Under the pieces are notes generated by a model. That model had not been told where the DNA came from. It did not search any database and saw nothing but the letters and a program-made list of their open reading frames with translations. Positions 40,915 to 46,685 of a stretch of 64,000 bases of DNA are shown piece by piece (the stretch's first letter is position 1; every line of letters begins with the position of its first letter). Both the position numbers and the translations under genes were made by a program. The stretch is from a bacterium (GTDB lineage: Bacteria > Patescibacteriota > Minisyncoccia > Phycocordibacterales > CAIZIN01). Location of the stretch: NCBI GenBank assembly GCA_031409775.1, contig JANNXY010000042.1, positions 165-64,164 of the forward strand. Reading direction: 5' to 3'.

Positions 40915-42795
40915 ATGTATTTAATCCGAGTAATACCAATATCTAGAGGAATTGACAAGGACTCGCTTACATATTTCAGCCTCAGAGACTGCCCTGTGGG
41001 ACACATCGCAAGCATCCAGATAAGGAGTAGAATGGCCCCAGCTATAGTGTATTCAAGCGAGAAAGTGGAGATGGAGAAGAGCTCTATCAAGCAACTCCCG
41101 TATGAGTTGAAAAAGATTTCCGATGCTGGGAGCGGTAGTCAGCCATTTTTTAACCAAGCATTTATGAAGGCTGTAGAAAATATCGCAACACATCATGCAT
41201 CATCTGCAGGTGCGGTGATCGAAGCTCTCACACCATCTAACGTACTCTCTGAGCATGTATCAATCATATCAAAGGTGGCAGAAATTCCAGTCGACAATCA
41301 CCCCACAGAGAACCTGATGTTCCAAGCCGACGACGAGACTCGACTTGCACATTACAAAAGCATAATAAGAGAAGAATTCGCCAAGAAAAATTCTGTATTT
41401 ATACTTGTACCGACAGTTCACGAAGCCAACTTTATCAAAGAAGGTTTAGAAAAAGGTATCGAATCATATACCTATGTAGCTCACGGTGGTCTGTCCAAGA
41501 AAGCTTCTGTACATCTATGGAACGAAGTGATAAGCAATTCACACCCTGTATTGGTTATAGGAACTGCGATATTTCTATCTATACCGCGAAGATGGAATAC
41601 GATCATAGTAGAGCGCGAGAGTTCTAGGCATTACAAAATGTCACAGAGACCGTTCCTAGATGTTCGACGTGTCGCAGAGAAGCTGGCCCTGCATTCGAAA
41701 GCGACATGTATATTTGCAGACGTGATGCTACGCGCAGAAACTCTCTGTAGGTACGAAGATGGCGAGATACACGAAGTGAGTAAACCCCAATGGAGGTCTA
41801 TGTCGAATTCCAAGATAAACCTAGTAGACCTCCGTAGTCTCAAATTCTCTATACTAAGTAATGAGCTGAGGCAACTGATTTCTGACAACAAATCCAACGG
41901 TCGGAGGCTGTTTATCTATGTATCACGTAGGGGTAATTCTCCACAGATTATATGTCGGGACTGTGGCAACACGGTTATGTGTAACAGGTGTAGTGCACCC
42001 GTAGTGCTGCATACATCAGCTGCCAAAAGTGATCGATACTTCCTCTGCCATAGTTGTGGCGAGCGACGTACCGCAGATGAGTCATGCACTCACTGCGAGA
42101 GCTGGCACCTACAGGGCTACGGTGTGGGCATAGAATCTGCCCAAGAACTCCTGAGTAAAGAATTTCCAAATATCAAAATATTTAGAATCGACTCCGACAC
42201 TACACCCACAGACAAGAAAGCGACAGCTGTAATAGATGAATTCTATACCAACCCCGGTAGCATACTACTAGGCACTGACCGTGCGCTGTACTACCTCAAG
42301 GAACCGATCGAGAATGTCGCTATAGCATCACTCGACTCTCTGTTCTCGCTCCCCGACTTCCGAATCCAAGAAAAGATATTCCACACCATTCTACAGCTAC
42401 GATCGCTCTCGTCACATACATTCATCGCACAGACGCGCTACACCGACAATCCGTTGTGGAACTATGCGCTCAAAGGAAACCTCATCGACTTCTACCGCTC
42501 AGAAAAGGACTCTCGCAAGCAGTTCCACTATCCACCGTACAAGACACTTATAAAGATCACCTACACAGGTACACCAGCATTAGTCCGCAAGGAAATGTCG
42601 AACCTCAAATCAATATTGGAACCGTATGTTGTAAACATCTTCCCTGCGTTTATCGAGAACAAGAAAGGTAAATTTGTAATGCATGGACTACTCCGCCTCG
42701 ACAAGCGTGACTGGCCGAACCTGGACCTCCATGACAAACTCCGCTCCCTCCCGCCAAGCTTTGCCGTAAATGTCGATCCCGAGAATTTGCTTTAG
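40915..42795 (+). CDS. priA: primosomal protein N' (PriA) homolog with degenerate helicase ATPase motifs
   Basis: PriA-like 3'-DNA-binding N-terminus and the characteristic CxxC-rich Zn-binding insert (CRDCGNTVMCNRCSAPVV...CHSCGERRTADESCTHCES) are present. No GxGKT Walker A was found. The DEEH box position reads IIVERESSRHYK. Confidence 0.65.
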   Translation: MYLIRVIPISRGIDKDSLTYFSLRDCPVGHIASIQIRSRMAPAIVYSSEKVEMEKSSIKQLPYELKKISDAGSGSQPFFNQAFMKAVENIATHHASSAGAVIEALTPSNVLSEHVSIISKVAEIPVDNHPTENLMFQADDETRLAHYKSIIREEFAKKNSVFILVPTVHEANFIKEGLEKGIESYTYVAHGGLSKKASVHLWNEVISNSHPVLVIGTAIFLSIPRRWNTIIVERESSRHYKMSQRPFLDVRRVAEKLALHSKATCIFADVMLRAETLCRYEDGEIHEVSKPQWRSMSNSKINLVDLRSLKFSILSNELRQLISDNKSNGRRLFIYVSRRGNSPQIICRDCGNTVMCNRCSAPVVLHTSAAKSDRYFLCHSCGERRTADESCTHCESWHLQGYGVGIESAQELLSKEFPNIKIFRIDSDTTPTDKKATAVIDEFYTNPGSILLGTDRALYYLKEPIENVAIASLDSLFSLPDFRIQEKIFHTILQLRSLSSHTFIAQTRYTDNPLWNYALKGNLIDFYRSEKDSRKQFHYPPYKTLIKITYTGTPALVRKEMSNLKSILEPYVVNIFPAFIENKKGKFVMHGLLRLDKRDWPNLDLHDKLRSLPPSFAVNVDPENLL

Positions 42796-43166
42796 TTTGC
42801 ACCCAGATAATCTTTGATTCTTTGTTTACTCTCATTTTCAGATTCACCTTTGAAGTAAATTTCAATAAATTCAACGGTAGTTGTCGCAGGATAAAAGGCA
42901 TAGATGATGCGAATACCACTTTTTGCCCCACGACCCTTGAGCGACTTACAGGCAAACTTCTTTAGTTTGCAAATTTTTATTTTATCTGTACAAAAGTTGG
43001 GAATCAAGAAAATGGAATTAATATATTCCAAACCTTCATGGTAAGGCTCTATTGTTGCAATCTTGGCGAACTCTAAATCATCTGTAAGAGACCTAAACTT
43101 CTTTTGCAGAAACTTTAAATCCCTTTGGAATTCACTTGTTTCTCTATAAATAATCTTGATCGTCAT
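42792..43166 (-). CDS. RelE/ParE/HigB-superfamily toxin-like protein
   Basis: 124 aa; C-terminal KSGIRIIYAFYP...IEIYFKGESE resembles the RelE/HigB core (GxRxIY...I). Overlaps the upstream HTH-Panacea gene by 23 nt. Confidence 0.5.
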   Translation of the reverse strand: MTIKIIYRETSEFQRDLKFLQKKFRSLTDDLEFAKIATIEPYHEGLEYINSIFLIPNFCTDKIKICKLKKFACKSLKGRGAKSGIRIIYAFYPATTTVEFIEIYFKGESENESKQRIKDYLGAN

Positions 43167-43962
43167 AATTTCTTACAGAAGTTTTCTCAGTCCGATAAAA
43201 AACACCTTCATATTTAATTGGCTGATTTTCTTTGGTAACGATCCATGGGATATCCTCATGAGAGTAGTTGCTCAATTCTGTGGCATTTTTATTGCTTAAT
43301 CTCGCCAATACTTCATCGATGTGCTTTATTTCATTTGCACTGAGTACAGAGAGGTTAGCCTGCCTCTTTGGTAGGTATTTGGTCTGCCCATGTTGGAAAT
43401 AATTACTTTTTACGGTTTCTAGCTCGCCTTTGGACTCCATTGATTCTATGACCTTTTTGAACTCCACTGGAGTCGGGCCAAAATGATTCTTGATATATGT
43501 CGCACCAATGAGCTGTTCTTCGAACTTTTCGTAATAATCAAAGTCGATAAAGTAGAGAAGTTTGTACAGAACCGTCATCCCGACATTTGGCTTGCCACCA
43601 ACCCTTTCGAGTATATAAAGCAATACCTCTTTGAACTTCTTGATGTTTTTCTGCGGGACATCTATGCGCATTCCTATCGTTTCTTTTATTTCCTTTTCGT
43701 CCATTATTCTTATATCCAATTCGAAATTTTTTTTTCCAGAAATGAGGTTTTCAATTTTAATTTCGAAAATCTGTGCGATCTTTTGAGCTTGGGAAATAGT
43801 CAGCTCTTTCTTGCCTTTCTCCACCTCAATGTAGCTTGGGCGTGAAATACCAATCTTTTCAGCAATATAAGCCTGTGACAAATTTGCCTCGTTACGTAAT
43901 TCTTGTAGAAATTTATGTTTAATCATATCCAATATTATATACTCGCCATATTGATATGTCAA
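43144..43962 (-). CDS. XRE-family HTH + Panacea (DUF4065) domain antitoxin-like protein
   Basis: N-terminal HTH (LSQAYIAEKIGISRPSYIEVEKGKKELTISQAQKIAQIF). The central GMTVLYKLLYFIDFDYYEKFEEQLIGATYIKNHFGPTPVEF matches the DUF4065/Panacea KLxKLLYF...GxP...GPV pattern. Confidence 0.55.
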   Translation of the reverse strand: MTYQYGEYIILDMIKHKFLQELRNEANLSQAYIAEKIGISRPSYIEVEKGKKELTISQAQKIAQIFEIKIENLISGKKNFELDIRIMDEKEIKETIGMRIDVPQKNIKKFKEVLLYILERVGGKPNVGMTVLYKLLYFIDFDYYEKFEEQLIGATYIKNHFGPTPVEFKKVIESMESKGELETVKSNYFQHGQTKYLPKRQANLSVLSANEIKHIDEVLARLSNKNATELSNYSHEDIPWIVTKENQPIKYEGVFYRTEKTSVRNYDDQDYL

Positions 43963-44092
43963 TAATAGTTACAATAAAATTGTTAAAATAACTAACATAA
44001 TCTTGATTTTTAGCTCCCCGTACCCTATTACACAATCAAATATCTGTCAAATTCAGCTTTATTTTATTCCTCATTTATTGTATAAATACCCC

Positions 44093-44759: not shown

Positions 44760-45467
44760 ATGAAAAAATCAAAAACTTTTAAATTATTATCTCGCGCCGA
44801 GCGTGATGAAATAGAAATACTACTAGAAAAAGAATATTCTGGGAGATCAATTGCCAAAGCACTCTGTCGTTCTCCGAATACTATCTCGTATGAGATTAGG
44901 AAAAACGGTGGCAAGAAAAAGTACAAGGCTCAAAATGCTCACCAATATGCACAGACCAGAAGAAAAGATACCAAAACACAGTGGAAAAAGATTGAACACA
45001 ATAGCACTCTCAAAACCTTCATCATTGAGAAATTGAAATTACATTGGAATTCCGATGAAATCGCTGGATACATGAGGCGAAAAAAGCTAAAGTTTTATGC
45101 CTCAAAAACAGCTATCTATGAGTGGCTTAGGAGTGAGTACGGACAACAATATTGCAAGCATCTCTACTCTGGTCGATACAGGGTCAAACGCCACAAGACG
45201 AGCAAGAAGAAACGGGAGATGATTCCTAATCGAGTGAGCATTGAGAAGCGTCCAAAGGCCATTCTGAAGCGAGGTAGGTTTGGTCACTGTGAAGCTGATA
45301 CTGTAGTCTCAGCCAAAGATGGCTCTGGAGGAGTCTCAGTGTTTCAAGAAAGAAAATCTCGCTTGTATCAGGCAAAAAAGGCGCTAGGTATGAGTGCCAA
45401 AGAACATGTGATTAATCAAGAACCCCGCGGCAGAGCCGTCCCCTCGCAAAGCCTCGGCGGGGTATGA
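44760..45467 (+). pseudogene. IS30-family transposase remnant (N-terminal HTH and start of DDE domain only), interrupted by IS200-type insertion
   Basis: N-terminal HTH region and GHCEADTV (IS30 GHWEGDxI equivalent) followed by ERKSRLY. Homology ends at ~45430, where the IS200 right end begins. No C-terminal DDE/E part is found downstream. Confidence 0.65.
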
Positions 45468-45995
45468 ATTGATGCATGGTCTAGTGCCAAAGGGTGAGCT
45501 GTACTGATTCGACCGTCTTTCCCTGGTTTTCTATGTATTTCTTTACTATATCCCAGTTTCCACGCTCGCCTACTGTAGCGAGATAGTAACCATCACTCCA
45601 GAACTCTCCTCCCCACAGATCTTTACGCAGTTCAGGAAATCGCCTGAATAGTTGTTTGGCTGTAATGCTTTTGAACATCGTCACTACTTCGATACCTGAA
45701 TACTTCGGGTGATAAGAGCAGAGTATGTGAATATGGTTAATATCGCATCCTAGGTTTTCAAAATCGATTTCGTATCTTTCACCGATTTCCTTGGCGATTT
45801 CTAATACGGCGAGCTCCACTGGTTTGTCTAACAGAGCTTTGCGGTATTTGACGGGAAAGACTATGTGATAGTGGGTATTGTATGCGCAGTGATTGCTTTT
45901 CTTGACCATGCATCTAGTATATCTGAAAACCAAGGGTTTTCAGACTTTCCTTAGCAGAAACCCCGCCCTAGAAGGGACGGGGAATGGGGGAGATT
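45425..45995 (-). mobile_element. IS200-type element (tnpA only) with subterminal GC-rich hairpins
   Basis: Left-end hairpin CCCCGCCCTAGAAGGGACGGGG at ~45948-45975 and an imperfect palindrome at ~45436-45470 flank tnpA. The element is inserted into the IS30 transposase gene. Boundaries are approximate. Confidence 0.5.
45481..45933 (-). CDS. tnpA: IS200/IS605-family Y1 (HUH) transposase TnpA
   Basis: 150 aa; HUH motif HIHIL (INHIHILCSY) and the conserved catalytic Tyr region (WSDGYYLATVG) typical of IS200 TnpA. Confidence 0.85.
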   Translation of the reverse strand: MVFRYTRCMVKKSNHCAYNTHYHIVFPVKYRKALLDKPVELAVLEIAKEIGERYEIDFENLGCDINHIHILCSYHPKYSGIEVVTMFKSITAKQLFRRFPELRKDLWGGEFWSDGYYLATVGERGNWDIVKKYIENQGKTVESVQLTLWH

Positions 45996-46013: not shown

Positions 46014-46685
46014 TTATAATTGTAATTTTTTTGAGTCTGAAATACTCTCTGATAATTCATTAAATGTATACTGGTAGATTTTCCAATCAGAATAATCAAT
46101 TATTTCTTCTGGTTCATCGAATGTAAGCCAGTCGTCTTTAATATTCCCTGAACAATGCTTAAGTTTATTTATATATCTGCCAACAGCGCTGTCTCTATTC
46201 TCTTCATTTTTCTTATAATCTAGACCTATTTTTCCTAAAGTTATTTTTAAGTCAATTAAAGTTTTAGAGGGGATAAATAATTCTGCCTTTCCATTATTAA
46301 TTATATGGTCAGTTATCTCTCGATACCTTAACGCCTCCTCTTTTTGAGATGTTTCTTCATATTTTACACCCAATTCCACTAATTTACTGCAATATAATTT
46401 ATATATCTTCCATTGATTGAAAGACAAATCATTCGTTACCTCATCGTAGGTTTTTTGGATGCGTTGCGAGTATACTGCCACAAGAAAACAAATTGATACC
46501 AAAATAAATCCCTCAGAGGGTGATAACTCATCCTGCATAATTATGAAACCAATAAATATAATCAAAAAAGGATGTTTAACGATAAATTTTTTAATAGAAT
46601 ATAATACTTTACGCATGTTACTTATTATTAAGATTTTGATTACAAACGGATAAAGCAATACTAAGTGCCATAAAAAAACCTCCAC
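46014..46685 (-). CDS. hypothetical membrane-anchored protein (223 aa) in very AT-rich DNA
   Basis: Two N-terminal TM helices then a charged Lys/Glu-rich cytoplasmic domain. Local GC is far below the rest of the window; no homology recognised. Confidence 0.4.
   Translation of the reverse strand: MEVFLWHLVLLYPFVIKILIISNMRKVLYSIKKFIVKHPFLIIFIGFIIMQDELSPSEGFILVSICFLVAVYSQRIQKTYDEVTNDLSFNQWKIYKLYCSKLVELGVKYEETSQKEEALRYREITDHIINNGKAELFIPSKTLIDLKITLGKIGLDYKKNEENRDSAVGRYINKLKHCSGNIKDDWLTFDEPEEIIDYSDWKIYQYTFNELSESISDSKKLQL

Follow-up and report, generated by a model that had tools for sequence, protein, structure and literature searches.

A probable PanAT-type toxin-antitoxin operon with a HigB-2-like toxin in a patescibacterial genome

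We analysed a stretch of 64,000 nucleotides from a bacterium of the Patescibacteriota (GenBank assembly GCA_031409775.1, contig JANNXY010000042.1, positions 165 to 64,164 of the forward strand), hereafter called the window, in which two overlapping genes on the minus strand, designated here panA and panT, encode an antitoxin and a toxin, respectively. In all probability the two genes form a type II toxin-antitoxin (TA) operon of the PanAT kind, autonomous and horizontally mobile, whose toxin is a HigB-2-like mRNase. The evidence lies in the domain content of PanA, in the fold and conserved residues of PanT, in the pairing of the two genes across related genomes, and in a conserved promoter upstream of panA. 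The features of the module, given in window coordinates, are as follows.

42792..43166, minus strand: toxin gene panT, a 124-amino-acid (aa) open reading frame (ORF) with an ATG start; RelE/ParE fold, HigB-2-like
43144..43926, minus strand: antitoxin gene panA, 260 aa from the ATG at 43926
43144..43166, minus strand: panA/panT overlap of 23 nt, ATGACGATCAAGATTATTTATAG, the 3' end of the antitoxin gene lying over the 5' end of the toxin gene
43750..43908, minus strand: XRE-type helix-turn-helix (HTH) of PanA, PF01381 (HTH_3)
43243..43569, minus strand: Panacea (SocA-like, DUF4065) domain of PanA, PF13274 (SocA_Panacea)
43147..43242, minus strand: conserved C-terminal tail of PanA, IVTKENQPIKYEGVFYRTEKTSVRNYDDQDYL
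42849..42911, minus strand: putative catalytic segment of PanT, with R86 (42909-42911), Y104 (42855-42857) and K106 (42849-42851)
43934..43962, minus strand: sigma-70 promoter, TTGACA-17 nt-TATAAT
43957..43973, minus strand: degenerate operator-like palindrome TGTAAC-TATTA-TTGACA
43981..43997, minus strand: second degenerate operator-like palindrome TGTTAG-TTATT-TTAACA

Gene pair and antitoxin start site

An initial annotation of this DNA had described an antitoxin of 272 aa followed by a toxin of 124 aa, with an overlap of 23 nt, and its coordinates, ORF sizes and overlap all match the sequence, in which both ORFs lie on the minus strand. The 272-aa antitoxin is the panA ORF as listed mechanically (43144..43962, minus strand, TTG start); a protein of 260 aa is more likely, because the TTG at 43962 coincides with the first base of the promoter -35 box and because nearly all antitoxins among the closest 120 homologs are 257-262 aa in length. 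Translation of panA most likely starts at the in-frame ATG at 43926, which sits 7 nt past the -10 box and yields a 260-aa protein beginning MIKHKF; the 36 nt of the longer ORF that precede this ATG are overlain by the promoter. A 245-aa antitoxin proposed by a gene caller would have a truncated HTH. The overlap of panA and panT suggests that translation of the two genes is coupled.

PanA carries an HTH, a Panacea domain and a conserved tail

The initial annotation had assigned an N-terminal XRE-type HTH and a central Panacea/DUF4065 domain to the antitoxin, and the Pfam search that it proposed placed both above their gathering scores; the HTH matched PF01381 with an E-value of 1.4e-12 (47.9 bits against a cut-off of 23), and the Panacea domain matched PF13274 with an E-value of 4.6e-18 (66.6 bits against a cut-off of 25.7) over profile positions 1-112 of 113. 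The GMTVLYKLLYFIDF segment that had been quoted as the hallmark of the domain is the start of this Panacea match. Close homologs of PanA are named at NCBI either 'type II toxin-antitoxin system antitoxin SocA domain-containing protein' or 'DUF4065 domain-containing protein'. Searches of PanA against NCBIfam and PADLOC produced just generic HTH matches, together with sub-threshold matches to SocA and DarG. A profile built from the PanA alignment matched XRE repressors in the PDB, and the HTH is presumed to be the operator-binding, autoregulatory part of the protein.

Beyond the Pfam domain, PanA continues for another 32 residues, of which 12 are invariant among 45 homologs. This tail is retained in a PanA variant that lacks the HTH (described below), and is a candidate toxin-contacting element that may contribute to neutralisation.

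The DarG antitoxin model of NCBIfam, NF048014, also matched the Panacea region of PanA weakly (E 5.7e-4): positions 140-305 of its 338 aligned to residues 81-248 of the 272-aa ORF, or residues 69-236 when numbering begins at the ATG at 43926. Panacea and the DarT-binding region at the C-terminus of DarG may be relatives.

PanT is a HigB-2-like protein with conserved candidate catalytic residues

The AlphaFold2 model of PanT, calculated from 48 homologs, has a predicted local distance difference test (pLDDT) score of 86.8 and a predicted template-modelling (pTM) score of 0.82. Its topology is beta-alpha-alpha-beta-beta-beta-beta-alpha, with an N-terminal helical hairpin packed on an antiparallel beta-sheet, which is the alpha/beta fold of the RelE/ParE superfamily. 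The sole relative of PanT in the PDB by sequence is HigB-2, and the E-value of this match improved from 0.38 with the single sequence to 0.09 with a profile of close relatives, and then to 3.5e-4 with a broad profile of 66 diverse family members sharing 31-59% identity. The segment KSGIRIIYAFYP...IEIYFKGESE, quoted by the initial annotation as a RelE/HigB-like core, corresponds to the stretch that aligns to HigB-2.

In the 66-member alignment, F13, L20, D30, R86, Y104 and K106 were conserved at 90% or more, and no other positions were. R86 is present in 64 members, Y104 in 60 and K106 in 65; these residues align to Arg64, Tyr82 and Lys84, respectively, of Vibrio cholerae HigB-2 (VcHigB2), at which alanine substitutions lower activity 350-, 1,200- and 3,000-fold (PMC5416850). 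PanT thus retains three of the four residues (Arg51, Arg64, Tyr82 and Lys84) that make up the HigB-2/RelE active site. R86, Y104 and K106 are invariant as well in a distant branch of the family from outside the candidate phyla radiation (CPR) and in a CdiA-like C-terminal domain. The proposal that panT encodes a RelE/HigB-like toxin was therefore upheld by the HigB-2 profile match, by these three residues and by the pairing with PanA, whereas the search of curated profile hidden Markov models (HMMs) by which it was to be checked returned no match for the toxin.

The family to which PanT belongs comprises 1,017 clusters at 90% identity and 643 clusters, each with a representative, at 50% identity (E<=1e-3), and some of its members are labelled RelE or YafQ by JGI. 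When the window toxin was compared with 48 close relatives, mean column identity was 72%, and the family-invariant residues were all present.

The CdiA-like domain mentioned above belongs to an exoprotein of 3,334 aa, P0213 (L083:1753-11757), which contains haemagglutinin repeats (Fil_haemagg_2) and has a member of the toxin family, with the R/Y/K residues conserved, as its C-terminal domain; the contig ends 77 nt past the gene, and no immunity gene is seen in that space. This arrangement represents a CdiA-CT-like use of the HigB-2-like PanT domain. Because P0213 ends in the same domain, it provides an independent hint that the domain possesses genuine toxic activity.

A metal site formed by H43, C59, C66 and C73 was considered as a feature of the toxin family and rejected, since three of these residues (H43, C59 and C66) lose their conservation in the broad family; 57 of the 66 broad members retain C73. 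In the close Patescibacteria subfamily all four residues are invariant or nearly so, and may form a metal or disulfide site peculiar to that subfamily.

The pair is conserved as an apparently mobile two-gene unit

A scan of GTDB species representatives identified 286 relatives of the toxin, and 80 of the corresponding loci were retrieved; two of these begin at a contig end and are hence untestable for an upstream gene, leaving 78. An ORF encoding an HTH plus a Panacea domain lay directly upstream of the toxin gene, on the same strand, in all 78 testable loci, a recurrence well above anything that chance would produce in a toxin family of this size. With starts assigned, the antitoxin and toxin genes overlap by 11-35 nt in these loci, and the overlap is always 2 modulo 3. 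Both the overlapping, antitoxin-first arrangement of the pair and the expectation that the two genes would be conserved together in related genomes are thus borne out in every testable locus.

The hosts of the toxin relatives are mainly Patescibacteria. Outside this group the host range of the module includes Bacteroidota and Ignavibacteria; a distant branch with toxins of 114 aa was found in Fluviicola, in Ignavibacteria and in a genome with a 3.6-Mb contig, and here the toxin gene is preceded, with an overlap of 4 nt, by a gene for a 267-aa protein with HTH_3 and Panacea domains.

Close relatives of the toxin (55-61% identity) were also seen in metagenome-assembled genomes labelled Deltaproteobacteria, Gammaproteobacteria and Nitrospinota (loci L038, L043, L046, L070 and L076), one of them on a contig of 205 kb. 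These labels could reflect either true transfer out of Patescibacteria or errors of binning or labelling.

When the toxin alignment was used to scan the 2.9 million viral contigs of IMG/VR, one relative was recovered, on UViG_3300028581_002725 (L082:2771-4866). In this variant the antitoxin is a standalone Panacea protein of 197 aa without an HTH, 48% identical to the window PanA over the Panacea domain and tail; its gene overlaps that of the toxin homolog by 41 nt, and a phage-type tyrosine integrase gene follows directly after the toxin homolog. Because this variant pairs an HTH-less Panacea protein with the toxin, the HTH is an optional regulatory add-on, and the Panacea domain plus tail the constant partner of the toxin.

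The neighbours of the module in the window, priA, def and mreB, are common to none of the related loci. Nor was a conserved third gene found among the 78 loci, every flanking protein family being present in at most five of them. The module has a GC content of 0.34-0.37, below that of the window as a whole (0.43) and of the genes adjoining it (0.42-0.48). On account of this low GC content and the absence of the synteny elsewhere, the module looks acquired.

Promoter and operator-like palindromes

The promoter upstream of panA matches the sigma-70 consensus at 12 of 12 positions. Of 72 related loci, 56 have a strict promoter within 100 nt of the antitoxin ATG, where shuffles predict 0.34, and in 47 of the 56 the gap between the -10 box and the ATG was 6-13 nt. 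Because the -10 box ends so near the ATG, the panAT mRNA is predicted to be leaderless or nearly so.

A strict 17-bp palindrome, TGT[ACT]AA-N4-6-TT[GTA]ACA, was found in 28 of the 72 related loci, against 0.07 expected, and often lies over the -35 box. An inverted-repeat search of the promoter region in the window gave nothing beyond a trivial AT palindrome, and the two degenerate palindromes listed above, both relaxed matches, emerged only by comparison with the other loci. The first, at 43957..43973, overlaps the -35 box. The second, at 43981..43997, is weak evidence on its own; its position, approximately -70 from the ATG, is where most related loci carry the strict upstream palindrome. These palindromes would be the sites bound by the PanA HTH, and the arrangement of promoter and palindromes resembles the usual layout of a TA operon under HTH-mediated autorepression.

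Genomic neighbourhood

The genes and elements that flank the module are as follows.

40915-42795, plus strand: gene for a sequence-divergent PriA, TIGR00595 (NCBIfam), E 6e-65, 219.7 bits, just under the cut-off of 230
44760-45933, opposite strands: insertion sequence (IS) cluster just beyond def, with an IS30 transposase and an IS200/IS605 TnpA (Y1)

The priA product had no match in Pfam at 1e-3. The gene converges on panT such that the stop codons overlap (42792-42795), leaving no space for a terminator on either strand. Upstream of panA, and divergent from it, lies def (PF01327). Within the IS cluster, the IS30-family transposase is truncated at its 3' end (model positions 1-172 of 267), and the neighbouring IS200/IS605 Y1 transposase is intact; uvrC and uvrA come after the IS genes and an orphan ORF.

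The module had been placed at the edge of an accessory island. It does look acquired, and an IS cluster is near, but this description is only loosely right because the module lies between the core genes priA and def, as a small insert in its own right, with the IS genes only beyond def. The initial annotation had further suggested that the module may stabilise the island or take part in phage defence. Neither a tRNA nor an Rfam RNA that could mark an integration site was found near the module.

The orphan ORF after the IS genes (46014-46685, minus strand, 223 aa, GC content about 0.30) belongs to no Pfam or NCBIfam family; it may be a cargo gene belonging to this small accessory patch.

Proposed mechanism and alternative explanations

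Beyond the domain content, fold, residue conservation, pairing and promoter conservation observed for the module, we infer its toxicity, neutralisation, autoregulation and trigger as follows. The near-consensus promoter would drive a leaderless or near-leaderless bicistronic mRNA, from which panT, overlapping panA by 23 nt, is probably translated in a coupled manner. The XRE-type HTH of PanA probably binds the TGTMAA-N5-TTKACA palindromes that lie on the -35 box and upstream of it, repressing its own operon, and the Panacea domain together with the conserved C-terminal tail probably binds and neutralises the toxin. PanT, by homology, is most likely a ribosome-dependent mRNA endonuclease that would arrest translation once PanA is lost or inactivated.

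Several observations weigh against this interpretation. In single-sequence searches the toxin had no match at E<=1 in NCBIfam or in Pfam, whose ParE_toxin (PF05016), RelE (PF06296), HigB, YafQ and YoeB models were among those considered, no match in PADLOC, and no meaningful match among the PHROGs. Marginal Pfam ParE/RelE matches were obtained for just two of the 66 family members (E 0.0025 and 0.0065), and on this account the family is a branch of the RelE/ParE superfamily so far outside Pfam coverage. The Foldseek TM-scores of the toxin model are modest, at 0.41-0.55 (query-normalised). The fourth active-site residue of HigB-2, Arg51, aligns to Ala72 of PanT, and arginine occupies this position in 15 of the 66 members; the beta-2 strand in which Ala72 lies is basic, with K67 in 57, K/R69 in 54 and K/R/H70 in 61 of the 66. 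The AlphaFold2 model of PanA, based on a 45-sequence alignment, is confident for residues 1-65 (the HTH) alone (pLDDT 82-89) and is poor outside them (overall pLDDT 58), such that no interface can be read from it. With the toxin as query, tblastn returned no match from the plasmids of PLSDB or the phages of INPHARED, and a classic plasmid-addiction role is therefore unsupported. Finally, some proteins of the RelE/ParE fold have gyrase, not mRNA, as their target.

An unlikely alternative, and the one that survives best, is that the PanAT pair acts as an abortive-infection or phage-defence switch, in which Panacea would be the sensor of a phage or stress signal and, on sensing it, would free or activate the HigB-2-like mRNase; this departs from the preferred reading in nothing but biological role and trigger. 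Ernits et al. 2023 (PMC10440598) found that Panacea can neutralise directly or via appended elements, and proposed a sensor role where other elements neutralise. The module is very common in Patescibacteria, with 286 relatives among species representatives, and one variant adjoins an integrase on a viral contig; yet this was one contig of the 2.9 million in IMG/VR, and the module was in no cultured phage records. Moreover, neither protein matches a defence-specific PADLOC model, as distinct from generic HTH models, no conserved defence genes lie beside the module, and the switch has no known trigger. A fuller version, somewhat less likely again, would make Panacea the sensor and the C-terminal tail a latch on the mRNase in a dedicated abortive-infection switch responding to phage or host stress, with the toxin domain serving also as the warhead of a CdiA-like exoprotein. 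If the abortive-infection reading were true, few defence or dormancy modules of genome-reduced Patescibacteria would be as widespread as this one.

It is improbable that PanT is a ParE-type gyrase poison rather than an mRNA endonuclease: the activity of some proteins of this fold against gyrase speaks for it, and the residues that PanT retains are those of the HigB-2 active site. Still less credible is a type VI system resembling SocAB, in which the Panacea protein would be a proteolytic adaptor that passes the toxin to ClpXP without sequestering it. The Panacea domain is the SocA domain (PF13274), and PanA gave a weak match to the NCBIfam SocA_antitoxin model (E 0.0017); however, it scored only 18.1 bits against the cut-off of 190 of the SocA equivalog (NF047745), its RelE-fold partner is unrelated to SocB, and the PanA proteins tested to date form stable complexes with their toxins (PMC8832971). 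A decayed, non-functional remnant, consisting of an HTH regulator beside an inactive RelE-fold relic, could be imagined from the absence of any curated HMM match to the toxin and from the location of the module near IS debris in a small genome, but can practically be dismissed, given that both ORFs are intact with every family-invariant residue present, that the promoter is a perfect consensus and that conservation in the family is strong, 48 relatives having a mean column identity of 72%.

Significance

With a functional type II PanAT operon as the preferred reading, the module is a further example of an architecture catalogued by Kurata et al. in 2022, one that is very common in Patescibacteria, and its toxin activity is a prediction. 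It leaves the current understanding of TA systems unchanged. What it offers is a well-delimited PanAT example in which the promoter, putative operators, domains and candidate catalytic residues are defined, and whose toxin family has no model in Pfam, NCBIfam or PADLOC. This family would merit a profile HMM of its own and is particularly frequent in Patescibacteria, in which genomes of approximately 1 Mb retain few accessory genes. The module is also a tractable test case for the neutralisation of a RelE-fold toxin by Panacea.

Comparison with known systems

SocAB of Caulobacter, a type VI TA system, is related to the window module through its antitoxin, SocA being the founding Panacea-domain antitoxin. 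The two differ in that SocB, which targets DnaN, is unrelated to the window toxin, and in that SocA is a ClpXP adaptor; with its RelE-fold toxin and its low score against the SocA equivalog, the window module falls outside SocAB.

The canonical type II modules RelBE, YefM-YoeB and DinJ-YafQ share with the window module an antitoxin-first overlapping bicistron, a toxin of the RelE fold, a DNA-binding antitoxin and probable autoregulation via promoter palindromes. Their antitoxins, however, are small ribbon-helix-helix or Phd/YefM proteins that neutralise by means of disordered tails at the C-terminus, whereas the window antitoxin has 260 aa made up of an HTH, a Panacea domain and a tail; in addition, the window toxin lies outside the corresponding Pfam models.

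The closest fold to PanT is that of HigB-2 from Vibrio cholerae HigBA-2 (PDB 5mje, 5ja8, 5jaa and 8a0x). Both toxins have a basic beta2-beta3 loop rich in G-x-G (KGRGAKSG versus KGKGKRGG), equivalents of Arg64, Tyr82 and Lys84, and a C-terminal helix. Identity between them is approximately 17%, the window toxin has no PF06296 match, and Arg51 is replaced by Ala72. The higBA-2 operon encodes its toxin first, whereas in the window the antitoxin comes first; and HigA-2 is a small protein that neutralises through its N-terminal segment and carries its HTH at the C-terminus, in contrast to PanA, in which an N-terminal HTH precedes the Panacea domain and the tail. With neither the toxin-first order nor a HigA-2-type antitoxin, the window module does not belong to HigBA-2.

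The nearest counterpart is found among the Panacea systems defined by Kurata et al. 2022 (PNAS, PMC8832971), who described PanA proteins that form complexes with their toxins and of which many bear an HTH (343 with an N-terminal HTH), and reported ParE-like domains among the toxin partners. In Dataset S1 of that study, the entries of cluster T14/pT15 list antitoxin-first pairs whose toxins are named 'hypothetical protein' and have HigB-2 as their top HHpred match (99.73%). The T14 entries with an HTH as N-terminal domain come from Ca. Saccharimonas, TM7, Cryosericum, Flexibacter and Pedobacter, and those without an N-terminal domain from Methanobacteria; all of them (for example WP_015641600.1) are predicted and marked 'notest'. 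The HTH-Panacea architecture, the remote HigB-2 match and the host taxa of these entries agree with those of the window module, and by this comparison of descriptions alone we infer that the window toxin falls in the T14 sequence cluster. The study drew upon RefSeq genomes, and the Patescibacteria radiation recovered here, with 286 species representatives and 643 clusters, is far broader than the dozen T14 entries examined from Dataset S1.

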